Shown: positions 6,083 to 57,794, numbered from the stretch's first letter. The stretch: 57,794 nt of DNA from Candidatus Omnitrophota bacterium (GCA_034717435.1 JAYELI010000057.1:1-57794); one strand, 5' to 3'. The notes: generated by a model not told the origin, from the letters alone. A program made the numbers and translations.

Positions 6083-6111
6083 TTGAAAAAGGGATAAAAA
6101 TTTGATAAACT
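6083..6111 (+). promoter_or_regulatory. Sigma70-like promoter candidate: TTGAAA - 17 nt - TAAACT
   Basis: Hexamers at 6083-6088 and 6106-6111. The -10 ends 8 nt before ATG 6120, which suggests a leaderless or near-leaderless mRNA. Confidence 0.3.
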
Positions 6112-6119
6112 ATACCGTT

Positions 6120-8567
6120 ATGTCAAATAAGATAAAAAAGCTATTAGTAATATTATTGCTGGCCTGCAGTTCTATTCATTTATGGGCGGGAAATAGTTAT
6201 GCAAGTGGCGGACGGGAAGCTATCGTTGTCGCCAGAACAGCCTATCAAGACCGATTATATGGTTTTTGTATCGGCCGGCTTAAGTCCTTTTTAAAGAAAT
6301 ATCCGCTTAGTGAATGGAACCAGGAAGCGCACCTCCTTTTAGGTAAATGTTTTTATCATCAGGATAAACCTTATCAGGCCCTGGAAGAGTTCGATTTTAT
6401 ATTACAAATTTCTCCGCCGAGCAGATATTCCGATCAGGCGCTATATTGGTCCGGGGAGACCTATGCTAAAGAAAAGGACTTTACTGCCGCGGTCAATCTT
6501 TATCAAAAGGTCATTGCTGATTACCCTCAGTCTACTTACAGCTCTTACGCCGGTTACTCGATAGGCTTTTGCTATTATCAACAGGACTTGTATGAGGAAA
6601 CAGTCGGACAGTTCAGGAAGTTTTTGAAAGATTTTCCAAATCATGCTTTATTTGCCGAGGCTAAATATAGAATAGGGGAATCCTTATATCACCTCAGGAA
6701 ATTTGAAGAATCCGAAGGGGTTCTTTCTTCATATGTTTTTTCCTTTCCCGAACATGAATATACAACTGCCGGCTATTACTGGCTGGGTGAGGCAGATTAT
6801 TATTTAGAAAAATTCAGAAAGGCTATTTTCAACTATCAACAGGCGATTAAGGCATCTCCGAAAAGCAAATGGGCAGCTTTGGCTTATTATGGTGCCGGAT
6901 GGGCTTATTATGAGCTGGAAGATTTCCAGGAAAGCCTAAAAGCACTTTCTTATTTTAGAGAATATTTCTCGAAAAATCCCCTGATCGATTCCTGTATATT
7001 TAGAATAGGGCAATGCTACACAGGGATCGGCGATTGGAACAATGCTGTTGAAAAGTATCAGGAGCTGATAACTAAATTTCCTCAAAGTGAGTGGGTAGAG
7101 AATGCCTGGTTCTGGAAGGCTGAGGGATTGTTTAGATCGGAGAAGTTTGAACGAGCCATCCAGGCCTATAAAAAATTATTGATGGAGTTTCCCCAGAGCG
7201 ACCTCTATAACCAAGCCTGCTATGGGCTTGCCTGGTGTTACCTTGAGATGAAAGATTACGAAAAGGCAATTGCTGGATTCGAGCAGGTTTCAAAACTGGG
7301 ACCCGATGATCTGTTAAAGGTTGATTCACTGGTAAAAATCGGAGATTGTTGGTTGGATTTAGGCCACTTTCAGAAGGCCGTTGATGCGTTTGATGTTATT
7401 TTAAAGGAATATTCCCGGAGTGCAGTGGCTGATTATGCCCAATATCAATTAGGACAGACTCTTTATAAAAAAGGGGAATTTGATTCAGCGATCTCATCTT
7501 TCCGAAGCTTAATCGTAAATTTTTCTAAAAGCGGCCTTTTAGACAAAGCCCAGTATAAAATAGGGTGGTCATATTTTAAGCAAGGCAATTGGTCAGCTGC
7601 TTACGATCAATTTCGGAAACTTATTGATAAATATCCCCGCAGTGCTTTAGCCACAGAAGCATTATTTCAAACAGGAAGCTGTCTTTATAATAACGGTGAT
7701 TATAATAAAGCGCTCAAGGTGTTTAAGAAATTAACTAAAAGCAGATCTGTTTCTCCGGAAATAGTCCGTAAGGCCCGGTATGAAATGGCCTGGTGTTACT
7801 GGCAGATGAATAAAGAAGATGAAGCGATTGGGGAGTTTAAGCAGTATCTGGCTAATTGTCCGGCTTCTTCTCTAGCAGCAGATGTATTGTTATGGTTAGG
7901 CAAATATAATTATGACCATGACCAGTTTGAAAGCGCGCGAGGATATTTTAAGAAAATCCTTTCGGAGTTTTCTACCCATCAATTGAGTGATGACGCTGCT
8001 TATTGGATAGGCTGGACATTTTATTCAAGCAAAGATTTAAGTTCAGCCCTTGAGCAATTTAAGAATATGGCAGCTCATTATCCGGGGAGCGAGTTAGCCG
8101 GTGATGCATTCTTAAGGGCCGGCGATATTTTGTCCGAGCGAAAAGAACACAGGAGGGCTCTTGTTTATTACCAGAAGGCCTTGGATAAAGCAGAAGGCAG
8201 TTTAAAAGCGGAAATTCAATTTCAGATTGCCAAATGCTATCAGGACCAAAAAAATATCGATCAGGCAAAAATCGAGTATCTTAAGGTTACCTATCTCTAC
8301 CCTGAGTCTAAATACTGGGCCATGGAGGCCAGGATCCGTGCTGCTTATATATTCGAGCAGCAGAACCAGTGGAGTGAAGCAAAAACTATTTATGAAAAGA
8401 TAATTTCCAGCCAGTTGAAAGAAGCTGAATATGCCAAAAGAAGATTAGAGTGGATCAGGGATAATATCGGCGGTTTAACTTCTGAACTTGAGGTAATGCA
8501 GGTTGAGATTGAAAGTCCTGAACTTAAGGTTCCAGAATTGATCATACCACAAACTAACACAAATTAG
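6120..8567 (+). CDS. Large exported tetratricopeptide-repeat protein (YbgF/CpoB-like repeats)
   Basis: Signal-peptide-like N-terminus MSNKIKKLLVILLLACSS. About 800 aa of repeated A..Y..G..Y......A...F TPR pattern. Lies upstream of exbB/exbD. Confidence 0.8.
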   Translation: MSNKIKKLLVILLLACSSIHLWAGNSYASGGREAIVVARTAYQDRLYGFCIGRLKSFLKKYPLSEWNQEAHLLLGKCFYHQDKPYQALEEFDFILQISPPSRYSDQALYWSGETYAKEKDFTAAVNLYQKVIADYPQSTYSSYAGYSIGFCYYQQDLYEETVGQFRKFLKDFPNHALFAEAKYRIGESLYHLRKFEESEGVLSSYVFSFPEHEYTTAGYYWLGEADYYLEKFRKAIFNYQQAIKASPKSKWAALAYYGAGWAYYELEDFQESLKALSYFREYFSKNPLIDSCIFRIGQCYTGIGDWNNAVEKYQELITKFPQSEWVENAWFWKAEGLFRSEKFERAIQAYKKLLMEFPQSDLYNQACYGLAWCYLEMKDYEKAIAGFEQVSKLGPDDLLKVDSLVKIGDCWLDLGHFQKAVDAFDVILKEYSRSAVADYAQYQLGQTLYKKGEFDSAISSFRSLIVNFSKSGLLDKAQYKIGWSYFKQGNWSAAYDQFRKLIDKYPRSALATEALFQTGSCLYNNGDYNKALKVFKKLTKSRSVSPEIVRKARYEMAWCYWQMNKEDEAIGEFKQYLANCPASSLAADVLLWLGKYNYDHDQFESARGYFKKILSEFSTHQLSDDAAYWIGWTFYSSKDLSSALEQFKNMAAHYPGSELAGDAFLRAGDILSERKEHRRALVYYQKALDKAEGSLKAEIQFQIAKCYQDQKNIDQAKIEYLKVTYLYPESKYWAMEARIRAAYIFEQQNQWSEAKTIYEKIISSQLKEAEYAKRRLEWIRDNIGGLTSELEVMQVEIESPELKVPELIIPQTNTN

Positions 8568-8740
8568 CACAGAGGAAATAACACAGATGATCGCAGATGA
8601 GAAGAAGCAGATGATCGCAGATGACATTGTAAAAAACCAAGTTACAATCTTGGCGCGGATAAACACAATTTTTTTAAAAATAGGGTGTTTTGCTTTTATC
8701 TGTGTCCGGCTGTATTTTTTAATCTGTGGTCATCTGTGTA
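8568..8740. repeat. CAGATGA / ATCTGTG word-array hairpin element
   Basis: The left arm holds two copies of cagatgatcgcagatga (8584-8600, 8609-8625). Inner 7-bp hairpin attgtaa/ttacaat. The right arm is ttatctgtg..aatctgtggtcatctgtgt. Confidence 0.6.
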
Positions 8741-8755
8741 TACGAGGAGGTTAGA

Positions 8756-9388
8756 ATGTTTAGTATAATTCAAAAAGGCGGACCGCTGATTTACCTGATA
8801 CTTTTCTGTTCGGTTCTGGCCTTGGCTGTAGTGGTTGACCGTTTGTTTCATCTTTATCGGGCCAGGATTGACACTGATAATTTTCTTAAAGAGATCTCCG
8901 GTTCGATCAAGAAAAATAAGATCGTAGAAGCCATTGATCTTTGCGACAGGACTCCGGGGCCGATAGCTCATACTTTAAAGGCGGGTATAGTAAAACATGA
9001 CCGGTCCCGGGAAGAGATAAAAGAAGCAGTTAATGATGCCGCTGTTCACGAAGTCCCGAGGTTGGAAAAAAACCTGGGGGTTCTGGCTACCATTGCCCAT
9101 GTTACGCCGCTGCTCGGACTTTTAGGAACGGTCAACGGAATGATAAGATGCTTTCAGATAATCCAGGAAAAAGCTTCTGCCTTTAATCCGGTCAGCCCGG
9201 GTGATTTAGCTCAGGGTATATGGGTGGCATTGCTTACTACTGCTGCCGGGTTGACTGTAGCTATACCTGCGTTGGTGGCTTATAATTATCTGGTCAGCCG
9301 GGTAGATAGTTTTGTTCTAGATATGGAAAAAAGCGCTACGGATCTGGTAAACATACTTGCTCAACGGAGTGAAGGTTATGAAGTTTAA
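8756..9388 (+). CDS. MotA/TolQ/ExbB proton-channel protein
   Basis: SD gaggagg lies before ATG 8756. LGLLGTVNGMIRCF motif and three TM segments. Confidence 0.85.
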   Translation: MFSIIQKGGPLIYLILFCSVLALAVVVDRLFHLYRARIDTDNFLKEISGSIKKNKIVEAIDLCDRTPGPIAHTLKAGIVKHDRSREEIKEAVNDAAVHEVPRLEKNLGVLATIAHVTPLLGLLGTVNGMIRCFQIIQEKASAFNPVSPGDLAQGIWVALLTTAAGLTVAIPALVAYNYLVSRVDSFVLDMEKSATDLVNILAQRSEGYEV

Positions 9389-9770
9389 ACGCCATATAGA
9401 GTTAGCAAAGGGCCGTTTGGATATCGCTCCCCTGGTAGACGTCATTTTTTTACTGATCATATTTTTTATGCTTACATCTACATTTGTGCTTCAGCCGGTT
9501 ATCAAGGTTAAACTGCCCAAGGCGGTTACTTCCGAAGCGCTTGAGGGAAAAAATTTAGTTATCGAGATTACCGCTGAAGGCAAGATTTATTTCGACAATA
9601 AAGTTATTTCTTTGTCTAAATTAAAAGAAGAACTTGCAAATATAGCTGACGGAGACAAACCCCTTCTTATCAAGGCAGACGAAAAAGCTTCCCTGGGTAA
9701 GGTGGTTGAGGTCTGGGATCTATGCCGGGATATAGGGATATCCCAAGTAAGCATAGCTACTAAACCCTGA
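9378..9770 (+). CDS. ExbD/TolR biopolymer transport protein
   Basis: IAPLVDVIFLLIIFFML motif. 11-nt overlap with the exbB-like gene. Confidence 0.85.
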   Translation: MKFKRHIELAKGRLDIAPLVDVIFLLIIFFMLTSTFVLQPVIKVKLPKAVTSEALEGKNLVIEITAEGKIYFDNKVISLSKLKEELANIADGDKPLLIKADEKASLGKVVEVWDLCRDIGISQVSIATKP

Positions 9771-9849
9771 AAGGTTATTGTAAAAGGGTCAGTTTAAAAT
9801 TTAAAACGCTAAATGATAATTTTTAAATGGTTTTTAGAAATAAAAGAAA

Positions 9850-10536
9850 ATGGTTTTGTTCAGAAACAAAGTATTTAATTTGGCCCTGGTGATTTCTATT
9901 CTCTGGCATTTGCTTTGTATATGCGGGGTGAGGATAGAACTCAACCCTTTTTATACCCATGAGCTTAAGAAATATCCGGCAATTTCTTTTCTGGGGCCCA
10001 TACTGGAAGAAACTGCTTTTAGAAGGGGGTTAAAAATCGGTTTGCCTGAAGCTGTTAAAGTTCCTCTCAGGAAATTGTTTTCTGATAAACTGAACTTGCG
10101 AAGTCAGTTTTCAAATGATCAAATAAGGGCCAGAGGCAAAAAAAGGATTGTTACAAGACAACAGGCAGGTAGCCCGGATAAACATGTGCTGGTTGAGTCA
10201 TTTGATAATTTAAGACAGGATTCCCAAAATGCCCCGGATTATTTACCGCGGGTTAGGCTCCAGGGGCCGGTTGAAAACAGGGCGGTTCTTTACAATCCAC
10301 CCCTGCCTTCTTTGCCTGACTGGGCGAGCCAAGAAGGGCTTAGGTTTGACTTAAAGATTAAATTCTGGGTTTCCTCCCAGGGCGTGGTGAAGCATGCCAA
10401 ACCTGAGATTTCCTGCGGGTATCCCGAATTGGACCTCTTAGGGATTAGATATATCAGTAAATGGCGATTCGGGGTTCTTGGGTCTGATTTTCAGCAAGCC
10501 GGTCAGTGGGGTATTGCGAAAATCTCTCTGGAGTGA
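9850..10536 (+). CDS. TonB/TolA-like protein with TonB_C-like C-terminus
   Basis: N-terminal TM segment. The C-terminal pattern LKIKFWVSSQGVV...ISCGYPELDLLGIRYISKWRF resembles the TonB C-terminal domain. Gene context supports the call. Confidence 0.55.
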   Translation: MVLFRNKVFNLALVISILWHLLCICGVRIELNPFYTHELKKYPAISFLGPILEETAFRRGLKIGLPEAVKVPLRKLFSDKLNLRSQFSNDQIRARGKKRIVTRQQAGSPDKHVLVESFDNLRQDSQNAPDYLPRVRLQGPVENRAVLYNPPLPSLPDWASQEGLRFDLKIKFWVSSQGVVKHAKPEISCGYPELDLLGIRYISKWRFGVLGSDFQQAGQWGIAKISLE

Positions 10537-24888: not shown

Positions 24889-25836
24889 ATGGCAAGACCA
24901 TACAGATTACAAACAGAAGATTGTTTTTATCATATAACCAGCAGGGGGGATAACAAGAAGAAGATTTATGTTAGTGAATATGACTATAAAAAATTTCTAG
25001 AGTATATACTGAACGCAAAGGCGAGATTTAAATTTTATATCTATGCATACGTTTTAATGCCCAACCACTATCATTTTCTAATAAAAACTCTTCATGCAAA
25101 TTTATCAAAACTAATGCATTACATAAACGGGTCATACACAACTTACTACAATGTGAAGCGTAAAAAGTCGGGACATTTATTTCAGGGCAGGTATAAGTCA
25201 ATAGTTGTGGATACAGACAGTTATTTTTCAATATTGAGCCGGTATATTCATTTGAATCCAGTATTGGCAAAGCTTGTAAAGTTTCCGGAAGAGTACAAGT
25301 GGTCGAGTTGTAATGCTTACATCAAAAAGGAAAAAGATGAAATTATAGATAAAGGAGAAATAAATAGGGTTTTAGGAATGTCGGCCAGGCAGTATCGTCA
25401 ATTCATGATGGAAGGTTTGGGAAAAAAGGAAAATCCATTTAAAGATTTGTATGGAGGATTTATTTTGGGAGGCACAAAATTTATTCAAGATAAGTTAAAT
25501 GAGTTAAGAGAGCAAGTGGAGGGTGGGGAATTTTCTCATCAGAAAGACCTTAAAAGGTATATATCCATAAAAAGCATAGATGATTTAATGGAAAGAGAAT
25601 ATGGAAAAAGAATTAAGGAAATGCGCGCCAAAAGGACCTGGACTATGAGGAAGAAGAGAATAGCAATATATTTAATGAGAAAATTTGCGGGATTGGATAA
25701 TAAGGAAATCGGTGGAGTTTTTAGGATGAATTCTTCGGCAGTAAGTAAGGCGGCAATGAGTATTGAGAAAGGCATGAATGAAAGTAGCCAGTTGAGGAAA
25801 GAAATGAAGAAACTATTTTCGATTTTCGAGGGCTGA
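24889..25836 (+). CDS. IS200/RAYT-like HUH tyrosine (Y1) transposase fused to a DnaA domain-IV-like HTH
   Basis: YHITSRG, HUH motif PNHYHFLI, GHLFQGRYKS, YIHLNPV. The C-terminal IAIYLMRKFAGLDNKEIGGVFRMNSSAVSKA resembles the DnaA C-terminal HTH. Confidence 0.8.
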   Translation: MARPYRLQTEDCFYHITSRGDNKKKIYVSEYDYKKFLEYILNAKARFKFYIYAYVLMPNHYHFLIKTLHANLSKLMHYINGSYTTYYNVKRKKSGHLFQGRYKSIVVDTDSYFSILSRYIHLNPVLAKLVKFPEEYKWSSCNAYIKKEKDEIIDKGEINRVLGMSARQYRQFMMEGLGKKENPFKDLYGGFILGGTKFIQDKLNELREQVEGGEFSHQKDLKRYISIKSIDDLMEREYGKRIKEMRAKRTWTMRKKRIAIYLMRKFAGLDNKEIGGVFRMNSSAVSKAAMSIEKGMNESSQLRKEMKKLFSIFEG

Positions 25837-51757: not shown

Positions 51758-52297
51758 ATGAAAAAGAAAACCAAGTTAATTGTCCGCGAATGGGTTGAAT
51801 CTTTACTTATCGCCTTTATTTTAGCGATGCTGATTAGGACATTTATTGTCCAGGCATTTAAAATCCCTACTTCTTCGATGAAGCCGACACTGATGTGCGG
51901 AGACCGTATTTTAGTCAATAGATTTATTTACCGTTTTAAAAAACCAGAGCGATGGGATGTGGTTGTGTTTAAATATCCCCTAGATCGCAAGAAACCTTTT
52001 ATCAAACGGTTGGTGGCTGAGCAGGGCGAAAAGATTACCATTGCCAATGGAAGAGTATTTATTAACGGCCAGATGATTGATAATCCGCATCTCCCGGAAT
52101 ATTATTATAATCGGGGGGATTATGGACGCCAGGGTTTAAAGATAGATGTTCCGGAGGATAAACTTTTTGTCCTGGGGGATAACAGCTTCAATAGCAAGGA
52201 TAGCCGGTATTGGGGGTTTGTTCCTAAAAAAGATCTGGTCGGTAAGGCCTTTTTGATTTACTGGCCGTTGAACAGAATAAAAATACTTAATAAATAA
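51758..52297 (+). CDS. lepB: Signal peptidase I
   Basis: SSMKPTL (catalytic Ser), KRLVAEQG (Lys), GDNSFNSKDSRYWG. Confidence 0.9.
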   Translation: MKKKTKLIVREWVESLLIAFILAMLIRTFIVQAFKIPTSSMKPTLMCGDRILVNRFIYRFKKPERWDVVVFKYPLDRKKPFIKRLVAEQGEKITIANGRVFINGQMIDNPHLPEYYYNRGDYGRQGLKIDVPEDKLFVLGDNSFNSKDSRYWGFVPKKDLVGKAFLIYWPLNRIKILNK

Positions 52298-52322
52298 AGA
52301 ACGGGTTGAAGGGAGGCGGAAG

Positions 52323-53618
52323 ATGGAAAAGGCAATCAGGAAAGGTTTGGTTTTATCGTTGGTAGTCGGGTTGGTGAGTTTAGCAGCGGTTTGCAGTGTT
52401 AAAGCCGAGTTAACAGAAGCCCAGCAAAAATTGCTGGCCAAACGGGCTGCCAGGGTAGATGCCTATAGAAATCTGGCAGAGAAAGTAAAAGGCTTACAGA
52501 TTAATTCTACGACCTATGTCCGTGATTTTGTAGTTCTCAGTGACCAGATCAGCACTGACCTCAACACATTCTTGAAAGGCGCTGAGGTGGTTTCAGCAAG
52601 GTATCCGGGGGATGGAACCTGTGAAGTTGAAGTGGCAATGCAGGTTGGCAGAATAATTACGGAACTTAAGAGGCTTCATCGCGTTCACTGGGAAAGGGTT
52701 CATTTATTTCGTATTCGACCGAATGATTTTACCAGGATCACAACTTATTATACGGAAGGCGTGGTAACCGCCAGGGGTTCCGGCCTTCCCAGGTCTCAAG
52801 AATCCCTTGAAACCAGTTCTTTAGCAAGCCCCACTATGGGAATTCCGGGCTGGGAAAATGTGACTGCCAGGGGCCGGCTCATGGCCCAACGGGCTGCCAA
52901 GGTAGATGCCTATAGAAATCTGGCCGAGATTGTCAAGGGATTGCGGATTACGTCAAATACCTATGTGCGTGATTTTGTAGCTGAAAGCGACCAGATCAGC
53001 ACTCAATTGGACGCTTTTATTAAAGGAATAGAGCAGATAGGTCCTTATCGATATACCCCGGAAGGGATATGCGAGGCGGATGTTGAAGTAAGCGTTAGAA
53101 AGGTAGTCAAGAAATTAAAAGAAATACGTAAGTGGTATATCCGCCGCCGTTACCCCTGGCGCCGTGTATATATCAAGACGATAAGGTTTGAAAAGATAAT
53201 CGAATATTATCCTGCCAGGGTTATCAGGGCTACCGGCCAGGGAGTAGCGCCGGCCAAATACATTAAAGGGTCTTCGATTTCACCGGCTGCTCCGGGATGG
53301 GTGAACAGCAGGCTTACGGTTACCGGCGTGGGCATAGCTCCTGAGGGCAAATCAGGGCCAGAGGCAGGCTTGATGGCTGAACGGGCGGCTGAAATGGATG
53401 CCCGCAGGAATCTGGCCGAAGAGCTCTACGGAGTTCAGATTAGCGCTTCTACTACAGTGATAGATTTTGTGGTTCAGCATGACAAAGTCAAAGCAGAGGT
53501 AGAGACCTTTCTACGGGGCGCCAGAAAAGCGGATACCAGATTCCTGACTGATGGCAGTGTCGAGGTAGATATCGAGCTTCCCATGGAAGGATTGTGGGAA
53601 ATAGTGAAAAAATATTGA
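52323..53618 (+). CDS. Exported protein with three LPP20/FlgP-like domains
   Basis: Signal peptide. The motif A.RAA..DA(Y/R)RNLAE occurs at aa 39-53, 188-202 and 352-366, each followed by G..I.S.T.V.DF. Confidence 0.65.
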   Translation: MEKAIRKGLVLSLVVGLVSLAAVCSVKAELTEAQQKLLAKRAARVDAYRNLAEKVKGLQINSTTYVRDFVVLSDQISTDLNTFLKGAEVVSARYPGDGTCEVEVAMQVGRIITELKRLHRVHWERVHLFRIRPNDFTRITTYYTEGVVTARGSGLPRSQESLETSSLASPTMGIPGWENVTARGRLMAQRAAKVDAYRNLAEIVKGLRITSNTYVRDFVAESDQISTQLDAFIKGIEQIGPYRYTPEGICEADVEVSVRKVVKKLKEIRKWYIRRRYPWRRVYIKTIRFEKIIEYYPARVIRATGQGVAPAKYIKGSSISPAAPGWVNSRLTVTGVGIAPEGKSGPEAGLMAERAAEMDARRNLAEELYGVQISASTTVIDFVVQHDKVKAEVETFLRGARKADTRFLTDGSVEVDIELPMEGLWEIVKKY

Positions 53619-53628
53619 GGAGAACATT

Positions 53629-54771
53629 ATGCTGAAAAGTCCGAAAATATGGTCGAATATTGCTATATTGCTGTTGGGTGTTTTGCTGTCGTCTGCCGGC
53701 ACTGTTCTGGCTCAAATCGAGCAAAAGGAAATGATCGGTGAAGGTATGGCAGCGGGTTCTTCTCTTATCTCGCGAGAGGAAGCCCTGAACCGGGCATTAA
53801 GGGACGCTATTGAAAAAGGAGTCGGGGTGCTTATTGATTCGGAAACAATAGTCCAAAATTTTCAACTGCTTGACGATAAAGTATATTCCCAGGTGAAAGG
53901 CTATGTAAAAAGTTACGAAATAGCCGGCGATAACCAGGGCGAAGGAGGAATATATAGAATCAAGGTAAAAGCAGTGGTTGCCCTGGGCGCATTGAGAAAA
54001 AGCATCAAAGGCCTGAACATTGTGCTCGAAAAAAAGGGCCGGCCGAGAGTTATGGCGGTATTTTCTGAGTCAATCGATGGTTTAGAGCAGCCGGGAGCAG
54101 TGGTCCAGACAGAAATGGAGAAGGCTTTTCTTGAAAACAATTTTCCCCTTATCGATAGGGCGCAGATGGAGATGGTTAAATCCAGGGATGCTGCTTTGAG
54201 TTATGCCGATCCTTCAAAGGCAGCTGCTTTAGGCAGGCGCTACGGAGCCGAAGTGGTTATAGTGGGCCAGGCTGCCAGCGATTTAATGGATACGTCCAAA
54301 CCTTACGGGGTTTCTGTCTATGCCTACCAGGCGCAGGTTTCAGCCAGGGTTATTAAGGTGGATACCGCCGGCTTGATGGTTTCCGAGAGCGTTGAATCTG
54401 TTCAAAGAGGAGGAGGCAGGATTCCTACTGCCAAGAAGTCATTAAAAGACGCCGGCCGTAAACTATCTGATTTAGTGATGAAACAGATTGTTGAAAAATG
54501 GAGAAGCGAGGTCTATAATTTAACAAGCATCCAGCTGATTTGCGAAAATGCCACTTTTGATAAATTAAATTTATTAAAAGCCGGGCTTCGGAATTTAGGC
54601 GCGGTTGAAAGCGTAAGCGAAAGAAGTTTTGTAAATCAGATCGGGATCATAGATCTTCAGATGGCTGGCGATGCTAATATGCTGGCCGCTAAATTGCGTG
54701 AATTTACCGATCCATTAGTGGATATAACCGGCAAGACACAAAATAGAATTGATCTGAAATTCTTGGAGTGA
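53629..54771 (+). CDS. Exported FlgT-like protein (LPP20/FlgT_N-like domain plus a CsgG/TolB_N-like middle domain)
   Basis: Signal peptide. GEGMAAG..SREEALNRALRDAIEKGVGVLIDSETIV..VKGYVKSYEI, then RPRVMAVFSE...NFPLIDRAQ...GAEVVIVGQA. Confidence 0.5.
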   Translation: MLKSPKIWSNIAILLLGVLLSSAGTVLAQIEQKEMIGEGMAAGSSLISREEALNRALRDAIEKGVGVLIDSETIVQNFQLLDDKVYSQVKGYVKSYEIAGDNQGEGGIYRIKVKAVVALGALRKSIKGLNIVLEKKGRPRVMAVFSESIDGLEQPGAVVQTEMEKAFLENNFPLIDRAQMEMVKSRDAALSYADPSKAAALGRRYGAEVVIVGQAASDLMDTSKPYGVSVYAYQAQVSARVIKVDTAGLMVSESVESVQRGGGRIPTAKKSLKDAGRKLSDLVMKQIVEKWRSEVYNLTSIQLICENATFDKLNLLKAGLRNLGAVESVSERSFVNQIGIIDLQMAGDANMLAAKLREFTDPLVDITGKTQNRIDLKFLE

Positions 54772-54847
54772 AAAAACATTCTATAAAGAGTATAGATGAT
54801 TACAGAGATTAAAGGACAGAAACTGAACATTATATCGGGAGGTTAAG

Positions 54848-55819
54848 ATGTTTAGAAACAAGGTGTTGCTGGGCAGTTTGGCTGTTTTAATCTTACTCGG
54901 ATTGACCAGCCAGGATGCATTTGCCGGAACCAGGAAAAGGAAGCGCAAGAAAGAGGTGGTTGTTGAACTGCCGTCCCTTCCGCCTTTGGTAGGGCCAAGG
55001 AAAATGATCGCGGTTATGGACTTTGAAAATAAGGCCGGAGCAGCGTCTAATTTTAGGATTGGTTCAGGTATGGCGGAAATGCTTACCACTGCTTTGATAA
55101 ATAGCGGGCGGTTTATTGTGGTGGAGCGCCAGGCTATTCAGGATGTTCTGGCTGAACAGGATTTTGGGGCAAGCGGCCGCACCGCTCCGGAAGCAGCAGC
55201 TAAATTCGGAAGGATTTTGAATGCCCAGATTATGGTCAGGGGCGCGGTAACGGAATTTGCGCAAAGCACCAGCGGCGGAGGCCAGGGATTTAGCTATAAA
55301 GGCTTTTCTCTGGGAGTGAGCGGAGGAAAAGCGCATGTAGCGGTAAATATCAGGCTTTATGATTCTACCACCGGCCAGGTTCTTGATTCTCAAAGGTGCG
55401 AGGGCTTAGCCAGTTCTTCCGGGCTTTCGTTCGGTTATTCTGAATCGGATTGGGCGGTAGGAACTTCTACGTTTAAAGCCACGCCTCTGGGAGAAGCGAC
55501 ACAGCGCGCTATAGATGATGCAGTATATTTTATTGCCCGGCGAATGCAGGATGTTGTCTGGGAAGGCCGGATAGTGACGGTAAAAGGTCCGGTTATCTAC
55601 CTGAATTGCGGAGCAACTTCAGGTGTGCAGGCAGGAGATAGTTTTAATGTTTACAGGCCGGGAGAGGAATTGATCGACCCGGCAACCGGTATTTCTCTCG
55701 GCTCTGAGGTCACCATGCTTGGAAGGGTTCAGATAGCAGAGGTGCAGGATAAGTTTTCAAAGGCAGCAGCGGTTAGCGGAACAGGATTCAAGCGGGGAGA
55801 CATTATCCGGTTTGAGTGA
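54848..55819 (+). CDS. CsgG-family protein with an extra C-terminal beta domain
   Basis: KMIAVMDFENKAGA...GSGMAEMLTTALINSGRFIVVERQAIQDVLAEQDFGASG...GRILNAQIMVRGAVTEF...VAVNIRLYDSTTGQVL. Signal peptide without a lipobox Cys. Confidence 0.75.
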   Translation: MFRNKVLLGSLAVLILLGLTSQDAFAGTRKRKRKKEVVVELPSLPPLVGPRKMIAVMDFENKAGAASNFRIGSGMAEMLTTALINSGRFIVVERQAIQDVLAEQDFGASGRTAPEAAAKFGRILNAQIMVRGAVTEFAQSTSGGGQGFSYKGFSLGVSGGKAHVAVNIRLYDSTTGQVLDSQRCEGLASSSGLSFGYSESDWAVGTSTFKATPLGEATQRAIDDAVYFIARRMQDVVWEGRIVTVKGPVIYLNCGATSGVQAGDSFNVYRPGEELIDPATGISLGSEVTMLGRVQIAEVQDKFSKAAAVSGTGFKRGDIIRFE

Positions 55820-55825
55820 AAAGAG

Positions 55826-56317
55826 CTATTGTGAACCGCGTAAAATCTTCATCCGCTTTATTACATAAGCAGATATTATAAGAATAATAAGGAAGAGAAT
55901 CAGGAAGTTATTAGCGTAAAGACGTTCGAGAAAGCAGGGATTTGCAGAAAAAGATAAGTCTTTAAGACCGGTTAAAAATATAATACTGACAGCCCCCAAA
56001 TGCAGAAGCTGGTCAGCCAGAAATGACCAGATTTTAGCCCTTCCTTTATCAACATACCTGACTTTTAGGCAATCAATAGCAAAATGGCTGGCTCCCAGAA
56101 ATAAAAACAATCCCCAGATAGCCTTAATCCCTAAAAAAGGCCAGGAAAGGCCGACAGCGCAGACAACGAATATCAATGCATGAAGAAACTGGCCCCAGAG
56201 GTTTTTTATCTTGAGCTTATAGATTATGTCGGGCTGCAAAGGGAAATCTGCTAAAAAATGCGCAAGAATAAGACGCAGGAATAAAAACATCATTCCTCCT
56301 TTTCCGGGAAATAACAA
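55826..56317 (-). CDS. DUF3307-like integral membrane protein
   Basis: ILAHFLADFPLQ motif and several TM segments. Confidence 0.6.
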   Translation of the reverse strand: MLFPGKGGMMFLFLRLILAHFLADFPLQPDIIYKLKIKNLWGQFLHALIFVVCAVGLSWPFLGIKAIWGLFLFLGASHFAIDCLKVRYVDKGRAKIWSFLADQLLHLGAVSIIFLTGLKDLSFSANPCFLERLYANNFLILFLIILIISAYVIKRMKILRGSQ

Positions 56318-56334
56318 CTAACAAATAGCGAGAA

Positions 56335-56447
56335 AATTAAATTTCTAATTGCCCTAATTAACCTAATTAATGCCCAATCCCCAATGTCCAAATTTTGTTA
56401 TTAGTTATTGGGTCATTGGAGGGTTATTTAGGTCAATTAGAAATTAG
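56335..56447. repeat. CTAATTRR / CCAAT word-array hairpin element between two minus-strand genes
   Basis: The left arm aatttctaattgccctaattaacctaattaatgcccaatccccaatgtccaa is roughly complementary to ttgttattagttattgggtcattggagggttatttaggtcaattagaaattag. The minus-strand stop codon (56444-46) is the first TAA word. Confidence 0.65.
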
Positions 56448-57487
56448 TCATTTGTGTTTAGTTCTATAATCTCTAAATAGTCTCCAAAGTCATCTATCTC
56501 GATTACCTCCGGACTGGCAAGATAATTAGAGCCAAAAATATCGCCGGTTAGGGGTATTAGCCGGTCGACTATTTTTTTAGATTTTATTTTCATGTCAATG
56601 GATATCGCTCCGTCAGAATAATATCCGGTGTTTATTATCCCGGCTCCTTTTACCACCCCTTTAACGGTCGTGCGGATAGAATCGTTCTTAATAGCGTAAT
56701 TCTCCAGGGTTGTTTTGGAATCTATGACTGTACCGTGCATTATTTCAGCAAGTTTTCGATAGGCATCTATCCGGGCAGAGCGTTCAGTAGTTACCTTTGC
56801 CAGGGCGCCGAATTTAGAGGAATATTCTTCTTCGGTTATTGGAAGATGCTTTAAGGAAGCATTGGCCGGTATTTGTTCGCCTAATATTTTCCTGGATAAT
56901 ACCCCGTTTCCTTCAGCGCCTATTTCAGCAAACTTCCAGGGAGAAATGACTGAAGAGGTAAGCTTGGTGACTTTAATGTATTTATCTAACTCATTTTTGC
57001 ATTCAAATACTACTTCGCCTTTTACTACTCTAAGTTCAGTTGAGGAATTATCCGGCAGGATGGTTACGGAAAAAGAGGTTCCCCTGACTCCGGAAACAGC
57101 AACCGGACTGGTTATGTTAAACTTGCTATCAGGAGATAGCTCGGTCAGGGTTGCTAATATTTTTCCCTTACGCAGGTCGATTTCTGTAATTTTAATATTA
57201 TCCCTTTGTTTTTCGATATCACCCAGCTTGACAAAAGAATTTTCTTTTAAGCGGATCACACTGCCGGCTAATTTTATATCGACTGAAGAATTATCCCTGG
57301 TTTTGATTGAATCCCGGGGATTTAAAGCTGTCCCCGGCTTTAAAGGCGCCCATTCTGTTTGGCCGGAATACAGGGTTTCTACCTTACCCTGAGAGGCAAT
57401 AATAATTGCCTGCTCACCGGCGTTAGCCGAAGCAGAACATAAGATAATTACCGCTAACAAGAAAATAAGTTTGGTCTTTTTAATCAT
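56444..57487 (-). CDS. Exported FecR-domain protein with a C-terminal LPP20-like domain
   Basis: Signal peptide. FecR-like segment (GKVETLYSGQTEWAPLKPGTALNPRDSIKTRDNSSVDIKL..GSVIRLKENS). C-terminal ERSARIDAYRKLAEIMHGTVIDSKTTLENY. Confidence 0.6.
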   Translation of the reverse strand: MIKKTKLIFLLAVIILCSASANAGEQAIIIASQGKVETLYSGQTEWAPLKPGTALNPRDSIKTRDNSSVDIKLAGSVIRLKENSFVKLGDIEKQRDNIKITEIDLRKGKILATLTELSPDSKFNITSPVAVSGVRGTSFSVTILPDNSSTELRVVKGEVVFECKNELDKYIKVTKLTSSVISPWKFAEIGAEGNGVLSRKILGEQIPANASLKHLPITEEEYSSKFGALAKVTTERSARIDAYRKLAEIMHGTVIDSKTTLENYAIKNDSIRTTVKGVVKGAGIINTGYYSDGAISIDMKIKSKKIVDRLIPLTGDIFGSNYLASPEVIEIDDFGDYLEIIELNTND

Positions 57488-57508: not shown

Positions 57509-57517
57509 ATTATAGCA
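57509..57517 (-). promoter_or_regulatory. Extended -10 promoter candidate (TGCTATAAT on the minus strand)
   Basis: The reverse complement of 57509-57528 reads ttgacgttttgtgctataat. The -10 ends 21 nt upstream of the ATG at 57487. Confidence 0.3.
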
Positions 57518-57598
57518 CAAAACGTCAAAGCATTCAACATCTGCCGGCAGAAAAATGCGACAGCCATTAGAACTCTACTCCAACCCCTGCCAGAACCT

Positions 57599-57794
57599 AG
57601 GTGTCATCCTGAGGGAGCGTAAGCGTAGGTGTCATCCTGAGGGAGCGTAAGCGACCGAAGGATCTCCCATAAAACCGTGTTTTCTGAGATTCTTCGGCCT
57701 TCGGCCTCAGAATGACCTTTTTTTAAGATAGGTGTCATCCTGAGGGAGCGTAAGCGACCGAAGGAAGTCCTGAGTATTCCCGAAGGGCGACCGA
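57599..57794. repeat. Mosaic REP-like repeat block, inverted relative to 1-140
   Basis: aggtgtcatcctgagggagcgtaa occurs three times (57599-, 57627-, 57730-). The reverse complement of module A is at 57651-57690. 57720-57794 is the reverse complement of 66-140. Confidence 0.85.

Follow-up and report, generated by a model that had tools for sequence, protein, structure and literature searches.

A cluster of five genes at the end of a contig from Candidatus Omnitrophota (GCA_034717435.1 JAYELI010000057.1:1-57794) probably builds a ring or a pore in the cell envelope. The window, meaning here the whole stretch of 57,794 nucleotides, is a complete contig of a metagenome-assembled genome (MAG). The cluster proteins are made of CsgG-type, FlgP-type and FlgT-type modules, and the order of their genes recurs in several phyla, including bacteria reported to be flagella-free. 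By analogy with homologs, the products of the first three genes, p1 to p3, would form one outer-membrane-associated oligomeric complex in which a CsgG-type pore is combined with periplasmic FlgP/FlgT-like rings and with a link to cyclic-nucleotide signalling, a reading to which we give an even chance. The cluster genes and the gene immediately ahead of them are the following:

lepB, 51758-52297: ends 25 nt ahead of p1
p1, 52323-53618, plus strand, 431 aa: secreted protein with three tandem FlgP-type LPP20 (SHS2) domains
p2, 53629-54771, plus strand, 380 aa, locus U9Q08_05050: FlgT-like protein, predicted to be periplasmic
p3, 54848-55819, plus strand, 323 aa: CsgG-family protein with a C-terminal all-beta FlgT_C/TsaP-like domain
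p4, 55826-56317, minus strand, 163 aa: DUF3307 integral membrane protein
p5, 56444-57487, minus strand, 347 aa: secreted FecR-LPP20 protein

The p1-p2 and p2-p3 gaps measure 10 and 76 nt, respectively. The p3 and p4 genes are convergent, with 6 nt separating their stop codons, and p5 and p4 are paired on the minus strand. The listed start codon of p4 is a TTG, and an in-frame ATG is found 8 codons downstream, at 56293.

Predicted domains and folds of the cluster proteins

The assignment of p3 to the CsgG family is carried by Pfam (PF03783; E 3.8e-41, 141 bits against a cut-off of 20.8, positions 8-207 of 210), and a FlgT_C match falls just below the Pfam threshold (E 1.9e-5); LpoB and TolB_N matches on the same protein are set aside as clan-level echoes of the far stronger CsgG match. 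Among the sequences of the Protein Data Bank (PDB), p3 finds CsgG (2.5e-9), while its C-terminus weakly matches TsaP (7.6e-3), and the alignment with E. coli CsgG runs through the ASNF motif of the constriction and the first of the membrane hairpins. The AlphaFold2 (AF2) model of p3 (predicted local distance difference test score, pLDDT, 79) has long hairpin strands at 128-172 and 178-207, followed by a confident all-beta C-terminal domain. When this model is compared with solved structures by Foldseek, the top match is FlgT (1.6e-15 over 308 columns, 12-14% identity) and the next is CsgG (3.8e-12, 23% identity, TM-score up to 0.72); FlgT outranks CsgG because p3 covers both the M and the C domain of FlgT, and p3 as modelled is itself FlgT-like, with M and C domains and no N domain.

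The same architecture is found in the orthologs of p3, of which 77 were collected: the CsgG domain is recognized in 77/77, FlgT_C in 69/77 and FlgT_M in 64/77, and both hairpins keep an alternating hydrophobic/small-polar pattern with aromatic residues, i.e., they are amphipathic. At the position of the E. coli CsgG constriction (Tyr51/Asn55/Phe56), the window protein has an ASNF aligned to ASNF, and the aromatic residue equivalent to F56 is kept in 53/77 orthologs. The signal peptide of p3 (N-terminus encoded at window 54848-54970) ends in AFA|G, of the signal-peptidase-I type, and is followed by a polybasic stretch (GTRKRKRKKE), with no Cys or lipobox. A polybasic stretch after the signal peptide is present in 36 of the 77 proteins, that of the window included, and lipoboxes are present in the Desulfobacterota orthologs and in some second paralogs; the basic stretch may replace the lipid anchor in the p3 family.

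For p2, the sequence gives weak LpoB/CsgG matches only, and no Pfam FlgT model reaches its threshold on any window protein; across the p2 family, the Pfam FlgT_N model is matched by 32/75 members. A family-based AF2 model (pLDDT 88.6) comprises an LPP20/FlgT_N-like head (about 32-118), a CsgG/TolB_N/GNA1162-like middle domain (about 140-296), which is predicted to lack the membrane hairpins, and a C-terminal domain (298-378) of alpha/beta fold, not the beta fold of FlgT_C. Over its full length, the two best PDB matches of the model in Foldseek are FlgT of the Vibrio LPHT-ring (8z5n_0, E 8e-12) and FlgT 3w1e (4.5e-10), and the middle domain also matches GNA1162, CsgG, PelC and LptE. In the weak alignment of the p2-family and p3-family profiles, p2 is without the residues of the second p3 hairpin and its first hairpin is shorter, in agreement with a periplasmic p2. 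The nearest NCBIfam family of p2 is LipL46 (E 3.8e-8, residues 40-329), at 32 bits against a family cut-off of 400.

In p1, the LPP20 domain is recognized in three stretches (Pfam PF02169; E 8.2e-22, 77.9 bits against a cut-off of 25.9). The best PDB sequence matches of p1 are 9hmf_C (1.8e-8), V. cholerae 9yds (1e-6) and V. alginolyticus 8z5n_2 (5e-6), which are flagellar FlgP or FlgP-like chains; the first carries only the label "Lipoprotein, putative", and we presume it to be C. jejuni FlgP. The C-terminal part of p5 (LPP20 at about 222-305) scores just below the Pfam threshold (E 8.9e-5, 23.3 bits against 25.9) and matches solved FlgP structures in the PDB (E 3e-6 to 3e-4). The printed alignments of p1 (331-422) and p5 (230-302) with 9hmf_C are gapless through the stretch that follows the SHS2 helix and, in p1, leads to the next strand. 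Judged from these alignments, that stretch may correspond to the beta-hairpin insert of FlgP, which has been correlated with ring oligomerisation in the family (Drobnic et al., PMC12222027). The N-terminal part of p5 contains a FecR-type domain (59-159, Pfam E 5.4e-13) and is nearest to the NCBIfam families Lsa33 and LipL45 (1e-18 and 1e-17), far below the family cut-offs. Both proteins have signal peptides of the signal-peptidase-I type, with cleavage at VKA|E in p1 and at ANA|G in p5, and no canonical lipobox. The DUF3307 assignment of p4 comes from Pfam (E 2.7e-17); against solved structures p4 gave a single match, to a "flagellin hook IN motif" protein, which is discarded as spurious, with no significant stretch. 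An exact-sequence look-up of p5 found no match, and a PADLOC search for anti-phage defence found none for any of the five proteins.

An earlier note, made by a model from the sequence without database searches, had claimed these five genes and their domains. Its five open reading frames (ORFs) lie at exactly the coordinates it gave, as does the 25-nt gap between the end of lepB and the cluster, and its CsgG, LPP20, FlgT, FecR and DUF3307 calls hold by Pfam, structure prediction or both. Thus, Pfam recovers the three LPP20-type domains of a secreted p1 and the convergent DUF3307 membrane protein; Pfam, AF2 and Foldseek agree on a CsgG-family p3 with an added C-terminal beta domain; and the FecR domain and terminal LPP20 domain of p5 are both recovered, the latter through the PDB matches to FlgP, its Pfam score being sub-threshold. 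The FlgT-like character that it gave to p2, with an LPP20/FlgT_N-like head and a CsgG/TolB_N-like middle, is upheld by Foldseek and by FlgT_N in the family; to this is added that the C-terminal domain is not FlgT_C.

Conservation, accessory arm and contig context

A p2-profile scan of one genome per GTDB species gave 51 loci, and neighbourhoods were counted with iterated profiles on the non-duplicate fetched loci (given here by L numbers) that had enough flank. Homologs of p2 and p3 occur in Omnitrophota, Auribacterota, MAGs mislabelled "Chlamydiae" or "Planctomycetia", Ratteibacteria and Verrucomicrobiota, to which the scan adds Sumerlaeota, Thermodesulfobacteriota/Deltaproteobacteria, Armatimonadota and Sericytochromatia. 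The p2 family is large, with at least 883 representative clusters (50% identity) at E<=1e-30 and 3839 at E<=1e-10 in an exhaustive profile search. A CsgG gene lies no more than 2.5 kb downstream of the p2 gene in 30/42 loci and an LPP20-domain gene no more than 2.5 kb upstream in 24/40, while a FecR-domain gene is found downstream in 19/35 and is fused to LPP20 in 14/35. The trio LPP20, FlgT-like and CsgG recurs in Omnitrophota, Auribacterota, some Verrucomicrobiota and Desulfobacterota. Since the order is repeated in dozens of independent loci from several phyla, the cluster is not a chance arrangement. Four variants can be told apart:

Variant A (window type; Omnitrophota, Auribacterota): triple LPP20, with or without small LPP20-like genes ahead of it, followed by FlgT-like and by CsgG+FlgT_C in one to three copies; DUF3307 and FecR-LPP20, both on the other strand; and last a CHASE2 cyclase
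Variant B: FlgT-like, CsgG, FecR-LPP20, an uncharacterised 326-aa protein
Variant C (Desulfobacterota): LPP20, a tetratricopeptide repeat (TPR) protein, FlgT-like, GNA1162/DUF799-like, a lipoprotein CsgG+FlgT_C, FecR
Variant D (Verrucomicrobiota): FlgT-like alone or with CsgG

The four variants identify the trio p1-p2-p3 as the core, and p4 and p5 as a separable, accessory arm. This arm, made up of the FecR-LPP20 and DUF3307 genes, is tied to a CHASE2 adenylate/guanylate cyclase. A DUF3307 gene is present in 8/35 loci and a CHASE2 cyclase gene in 8/33, the latter counted on loci with at least 9 kb of flank. The two genes occur together in 8 loci and are both missing from 25, the carriers of CHASE2 being L001, L004/L005, L008, L009, L011, L013, L016 and L028; this perfect co-occurrence among the loci sampled suggests that DUF3307 acts with the CHASE2/FecR arm rather than with the CsgG core.

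FecR proteins of the FecIR type carry an anti-sigma domain in the cytoplasm, cross the membrane with a transmembrane helix and are encoded next to an extracytoplasmic function (ECF) sigma factor. By contrast, p5 has a signal peptide and is without anti-sigma part or transmembrane part, and no sigma factor gene adjoins the FecR gene in the window or in the annotated loci. A closer parallel is the COG4254 FecR-CHASE2 pair, since a CHASE2 sensor is a recurrent partner of secreted FecR-domain proteins, as described for Burkholderia and Pseudomonas (PMC5192318). The likeness lies in the signal-peptide FecR protein and in the CHASE2 gene near the cluster in relatives; the pair found here differs in that its output is an adenylate/guanylate cyclase, not a histidine kinase, and in that p5 bears LPP20 instead of LysM.

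Several features of the relatives were observed beside the conserved order. In one Auribacterota subclade, one to three tandem genes for mini-lipoproteins of 41-72 aa lie between the triple-LPP20 and FlgT-like genes (L018/L057 9474-10014; L022 9442-10023; L023 621-839); these have a lipobox and then a conserved mature N-terminus C-T-Y-H-E-H-Y-Y, and could be a cargo, plug or partner of the CsgG-like channel. As cargo of the cluster in general they were rejected, being absent from the window and from most loci. A CDP-alcohol phosphatidyltransferase gene follows just past the FecR gene in an Omnitrophota locus (L002 13807-14373) and in a deltaproteobacterial one (L046 14331-14864), which could be a coincidence or a conserved link to phospholipid synthesis. 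In a variant-B locus (L058 9237-9932), two small ORFs replace the triple-LPP20 gene ahead of the FlgT-like gene, one of them with a weak N_methyl (prepilin-type) match.

The contig stops 307 bp past p5, and the cluster may therefore extend off it. At this extreme end, upstream of p5, a 42-nt direct repeat (TAGGTGTCATCCTGAGGGAGCGTAAGCG...) is present three times (57598-57770) and is probably the reason why the assembly stops there. One further element was listed in the same region:

sigma-70-like promoter candidate, 57509-57537, minus strand: upstream of p5-p4 (TTGAAT, 17 nt, TG-TATAAT)

This site was found by a consensus scan, with 10/12 consensus matches and an extended -10; it is weak evidence, because the promoter and terminator scans gave counts in the region not above those of shuffled controls. 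The stretch 52001-56000, within the cluster region, has the highest G+C of the window (0.466-0.469 against 0.39-0.445 elsewhere), which may reflect Gly/Ala-rich proteins or a different history. Outside the cluster, the 30 other ORFs of the window are housekeeping genes by Pfam, and include dapB, panC, nadA, truB, ribF, pnp, ftsK, rodZ, miaB, recA, htrA, alaS, his and trp genes, hflK/C, pgm, lepA and lepB. An IS200-like Y1 transposase gene stands among them at 24889-25836 (Pfam Y1_Tnp, E 4.9e-14). At 6102-10536, a gene for an 821-aa TPR protein (6102-8567) is followed by a MotA_ExbB-family gene (8726-9388) and by two small ORFs, of which the one searched has no Pfam match; the MotA_ExbB match was considered as a flagellar stator and set aside, the gene being read, from its position after the large TPR gene, as part of a Ton/Tol-type energy-transducing cluster.

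A proposed envelope assembly and its alternatives

By Pfam, no flagellar or curli genes are found among the five cluster genes and the 30 other ORFs of the window, and no flagellar genes in six Pfam-annotated neighbourhoods (+/-10 kb) of relatives; csgA/B and csgE/F are likewise missing from the cluster, from the 30 other ORFs and from the annotated neighbourhoods. The earlier note had remarked on this absence from the window, which is borne out, and had made its proposal depend on the genome encoding no flagellum or curli system that would account for the genes: here the window and the six neighbourhoods are negative, and the whole-genome evidence, which concerns flagella, comes from published Auribacterota MAGs, the MAG of the window itself having been inspected in the window only. 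None of the Auribacterota MAGs from Ace Lake encodes flagella, while Ca. Auribacter fodinae does (Williams et al., PMC9324843). Of the Ace Lake MAGs, Ca. Tritonobacter lacicola (92% complete; L013) has the full variant A and Ca. Theseobacter exili (88% complete) has p2 and p3 homologs; Ca. Auribacter fodinae (L027, L059) also carries the cluster. Within the limits set by the completeness of the MAGs, the cluster is thus found in flagellated and flagella-free genomes alike. The earlier expectation that the gene order would be kept in relatives proved right, within them and across phyla, and, with its spread over several phyla, the system is not confined to the one uncultivated lineage in which the note had placed it.

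The module types of the cluster are the same as those of the flagellar H-ring and basal disk, and it is from this that a ring-around-pore assembly is proposed. What the analysis shows is the identity of the domains, their predicted folds, the conserved hairpins, the linkage of the genes across phyla and their presence in genomes reported to be flagella-free. As to oligomerisation, membrane insertion, contacts between the proteins, direction of signalling and cargo, we infer the following arrangement. The p3 protein would oligomerise like CsgG, its two amphipathic hairpins inserting to give an outer-membrane beta-barrel pore and its FlgT_C/TsaP-like domain forming a periplasmic skirt. Around or beneath it, p2 and p1 would assemble as concentric periplasmic rings, p1 being a covalent triple of FlgP-type ring-building domains, in a layout that would mirror the FlgT/FlgP/FlgO H-ring of Vibrio motors without a flagellum. 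Through its own FlgP-type domain, p5 would dock on this scaffold and present its FecR-type domain to an inner-membrane CHASE2 adenylate/guanylate cyclase, whose gene is adjacent in relatives and can here be presumed to follow past the end of the contig. Such docking would couple the complex and its state to cyclic AMP/cyclic GMP (cAMP/cGMP) signalling, as the recurrent FecR-CHASE2 pairing and the CHASE2 cyclase genes flanking the cluster in relatives suggest, with DUF3307 (p4) as part of the sensory arm. The cargo might be a small secreted or surface-displayed peptide or polymer.

A number of observations weigh against this proposal. Rings and pores are extrapolated from homologs, and no candidate cargo gene is found in the window. 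The constriction Asn of CsgG is kept in only 7/77 p3 orthologs. E. coli CsgG needs its lipid anchor for membrane targeting, whereas p3 is without one, and a lipobox-like motif is present in only 10/77 orthologs. At the sequence level, the p2 middle domain resembles CsgG only weakly (hhalign probability 14%, E 0.0019, for the comparison of the p2-family and p3-family profiles), and its homology to CsgG for this reason relies mainly on predicted structure. Most of the sufficiently flanked Verrucomicrobiota loci have a solitary p2 gene, which means that the proteins need not act together in every case. No CHASE2 gene is visible in the window, where the contig end puts it out of view; L001, which is the closest of the long-flanked relatives, has it at a distance of about 6.7 kb. 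Finally, the MAGs behind the reported absence of flagella have a completeness of 88-92%.

Some of these points also count for the main rival, a closed scaffold or sensor of the envelope state in place of a secretion pore, in which a periplasmic platform attached to the outer membrane would stabilise or space the envelope and the FecR-CHASE2 arm would report on its integrity. Scaffold proteins of the H-ring are the nearest solved structures to p1 and p2 and give the top structural match of p3, and the H-ring anchors to the outer membrane and forms no pore; the missing cargo gene and the variable constriction Asn point the same way, and the tight link to the sensory arm suits a monitoring role. 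We nevertheless hold a closed structure to be somewhat unlikely, since all 77 p3 orthologs score as CsgG, identity is higher to E. coli CsgG than to FlgT (23% vs. 12-14%), and the orthologs keep two long amphipathic hairpins that are missing from p2 and from the other TolB_N-like scaffold domains, a retention that is hard to explain unless the p3 hairpins insert into the membrane. Another reading is a curli- or HfaB-like system for the export and anchoring of an extracellular matrix component, such as an amyloid, a polysaccharide anchor or pili, by analogy with the uncharacterised CsgG-DUF799-DUF4810 cluster of Acinetobacter baumannii. In the Desulfobacterota variant, the p2 and CsgG genes are separated by a GNA1162/DUF799 gene, mutants of the csgG cluster in A. 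baumannii lose poly-N-acetylglucosamine (PNAG), Cup pili and biofilm (bioRxiv 10.1101/2021.05.19.444899), and glycosyltransferase genes lie on both sides of the cluster in Ca. Auribacter fodinae L059, with others, of the PMT_2 type, nearby in L057. Matrix export is, however, distinctly unlikely for this cluster: these glycosyltransferase neighbours are not conserved across loci, no polysaccharide locus adjoins the window cluster, and no CsgA/B/E/F, HfaA/D or DUF4810 genes are found in the window.

It is improbable that the genes encode independent envelope or surface proteins held together by synteny, with no common complex, in the manner of LipL46, LipL45 and Lsa33, leptospiral proteins of the outer membrane to which roles as adhesins or in binding host factors are ascribed. 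The nearest NCBIfam families are indeed Lsa33/LipL45 for the p5 N-terminus and, for p2, LipL46, which is treated as an outer-membrane protein binding plasminogen and host cells (PMC9779477), and lone p2 genes are present in many Verrucomicrobiota loci; but all the LipL/Lsa scores are far under the family cut-offs (32 vs. 400 bits), the genes keep their order and close spacing from phylum to phylum, and the two modules, FlgP-type and CsgG-type, recur in changing combinations in all partners, with a docking-type LPP20 even on the FecR protein, which is typical of interacting ring components. More improbable still is a genuine flagellar accessory, equivalent to an H-ring or basal disk, with the flagellar genes elsewhere in the genome. 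The domains of p1, p2 and p5 are most similar to FlgP/FlgT, the cluster and flagella are both present in Ca. Auribacter fodinae, and the MAG at hand was inspected for flagellar genes in the 57.8 kb window only; against this, neither that window nor any annotated neighbourhood has flagellar genes, Auribacterota MAGs from Ace Lake, reported to be flagella-free, have the cluster, p2 is without FlgT_C, the scaffold of T-ring assembly in Vibrio, and p3 is a CsgG with predicted membrane hairpins, for which we know of no counterpart in known flagellar motors.

Known systems and significance

One of the nearest described systems is the H-ring of Vibrio motors, in which FlgT (C26, 26 copies), FlgP (C58) and FlgO (C58) form concentric rings under the outer membrane (bioRxiv 10.64898/2025.12.02.691832). 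It shares with the cluster the FlgP-type LPP20/SHS2 domains of p1 and p5, and FlgT shares its N and M architecture with p2, while p3 superposes on its M and C domains; the FlgO profile weakly matches one p2 homolog and 6 p3 homologs. The differences are that FlgP and FlgO are lipoproteins, whereas the window proteins have no canonical lipobox, that the C-terminal domain of p2 is alpha/beta and not FlgT_C, that the third partner is a true CsgG with predicted membrane hairpins in place of FlgO, and that the cluster is without flagellar gene context and present in MAGs reported to be flagella-free. In the basal disk of Campylobacter, the inner ring is made of FlgP trimers, and FlgQ is similar to a repeat of two FlgP units (PMC12222027); p1, as a triple FlgP repeat, parallels both.

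With CsgG, the curli secretion channel of E. coli in the CsgG/HfaB family, p3 has in common a complete CsgG domain, an aligned first hairpin and ASNF loop, and amphipathic hairpins; it differs from E. coli CsgG in its polybasic N-terminus in place of a lipid anchor and in its extra FlgT_C/TsaP-like domain, and its gene is accompanied by FlgP-like and FlgT-like partners instead of csgA, B, C, E and F. Non-curli CsgG-DUF799-DUF4810 clusters have been noted as widespread and uncharacterised in Proteobacteria (bioRxiv 10.1101/2021.05.19.444899). They share with the present cluster a CsgG-family gene and TolB_N-like accessory proteins, and the Desulfobacterota variant has a GNA1162-like gene (E 2.4e-23) adjoining CsgG, found in that variant only; the window, however, is without DUF799/DUF4810, has FlgT-like, triple-LPP20, FecR-LPP20 and DUF3307 genes, and its proteins are not lipoproteins. 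TsaP, a ring protein around the type IV pilus secretin, has one domain in common with p3, the C-terminal beta domain (E 7.6e-3), and the cluster has no LysM domain, secretin or pilus genes.

A literature search found no paper pairing CsgG with LPP20 or FlgT, and none on Omnitrophota and CsgG; the papers on LPP20 with FlgT, among the matches listed, were flagellar. Every domain family in the cluster is known, but for the combination of CsgG+FlgT_C, FlgT-like and multi-FlgP proteins, with or without the FecR-LPP20/DUF3307/CHASE2 arm, no published description was found, as the earlier note had anticipated when it failed to match the genes to a described system. The cluster extends the CsgG family with a new CsgG+FlgT_C architecture, with no lipid anchor and with new partners, and connects it to the widespread and unexplained non-curli CsgG clusters.

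To our knowledge, published work on the origin of the outer rings of flagellar motors notes only that FlgP comes from a broad family. Modules of the FlgP, FlgT and CsgG types, found together and in conserved order in bacteria reported to be flagella-free, are a concrete pre-flagellar candidate and make that origin testable; the bearing on the origin of the outer-ring proteins of high-torque motors is credible but unproven. At its furthest, and we consider this unlikely, the cluster would encode an equivalent of the flagellar outer-membrane disk that stands on its own, without a flagellum, a widespread FlgP/FlgT/CsgG multi-ring machine with a CsgG pore and cyclic-nucleotide wiring, from which the flagellar H-ring and basal-disk proteins were likely drawn. 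If so, FlgT would be an LPP20 head fused to a CsgG+FlgT_C protein that lost its membrane hairpins, and the cluster would represent a class of outer-membrane apparatus, for secretion or for sensing, that had so far gone unrecognised. For the uncultivated Omnitrophota and Auribacterota, a signalling-coupled pore in the envelope could be relevant to the way in which these bacteria interact with their surroundings.

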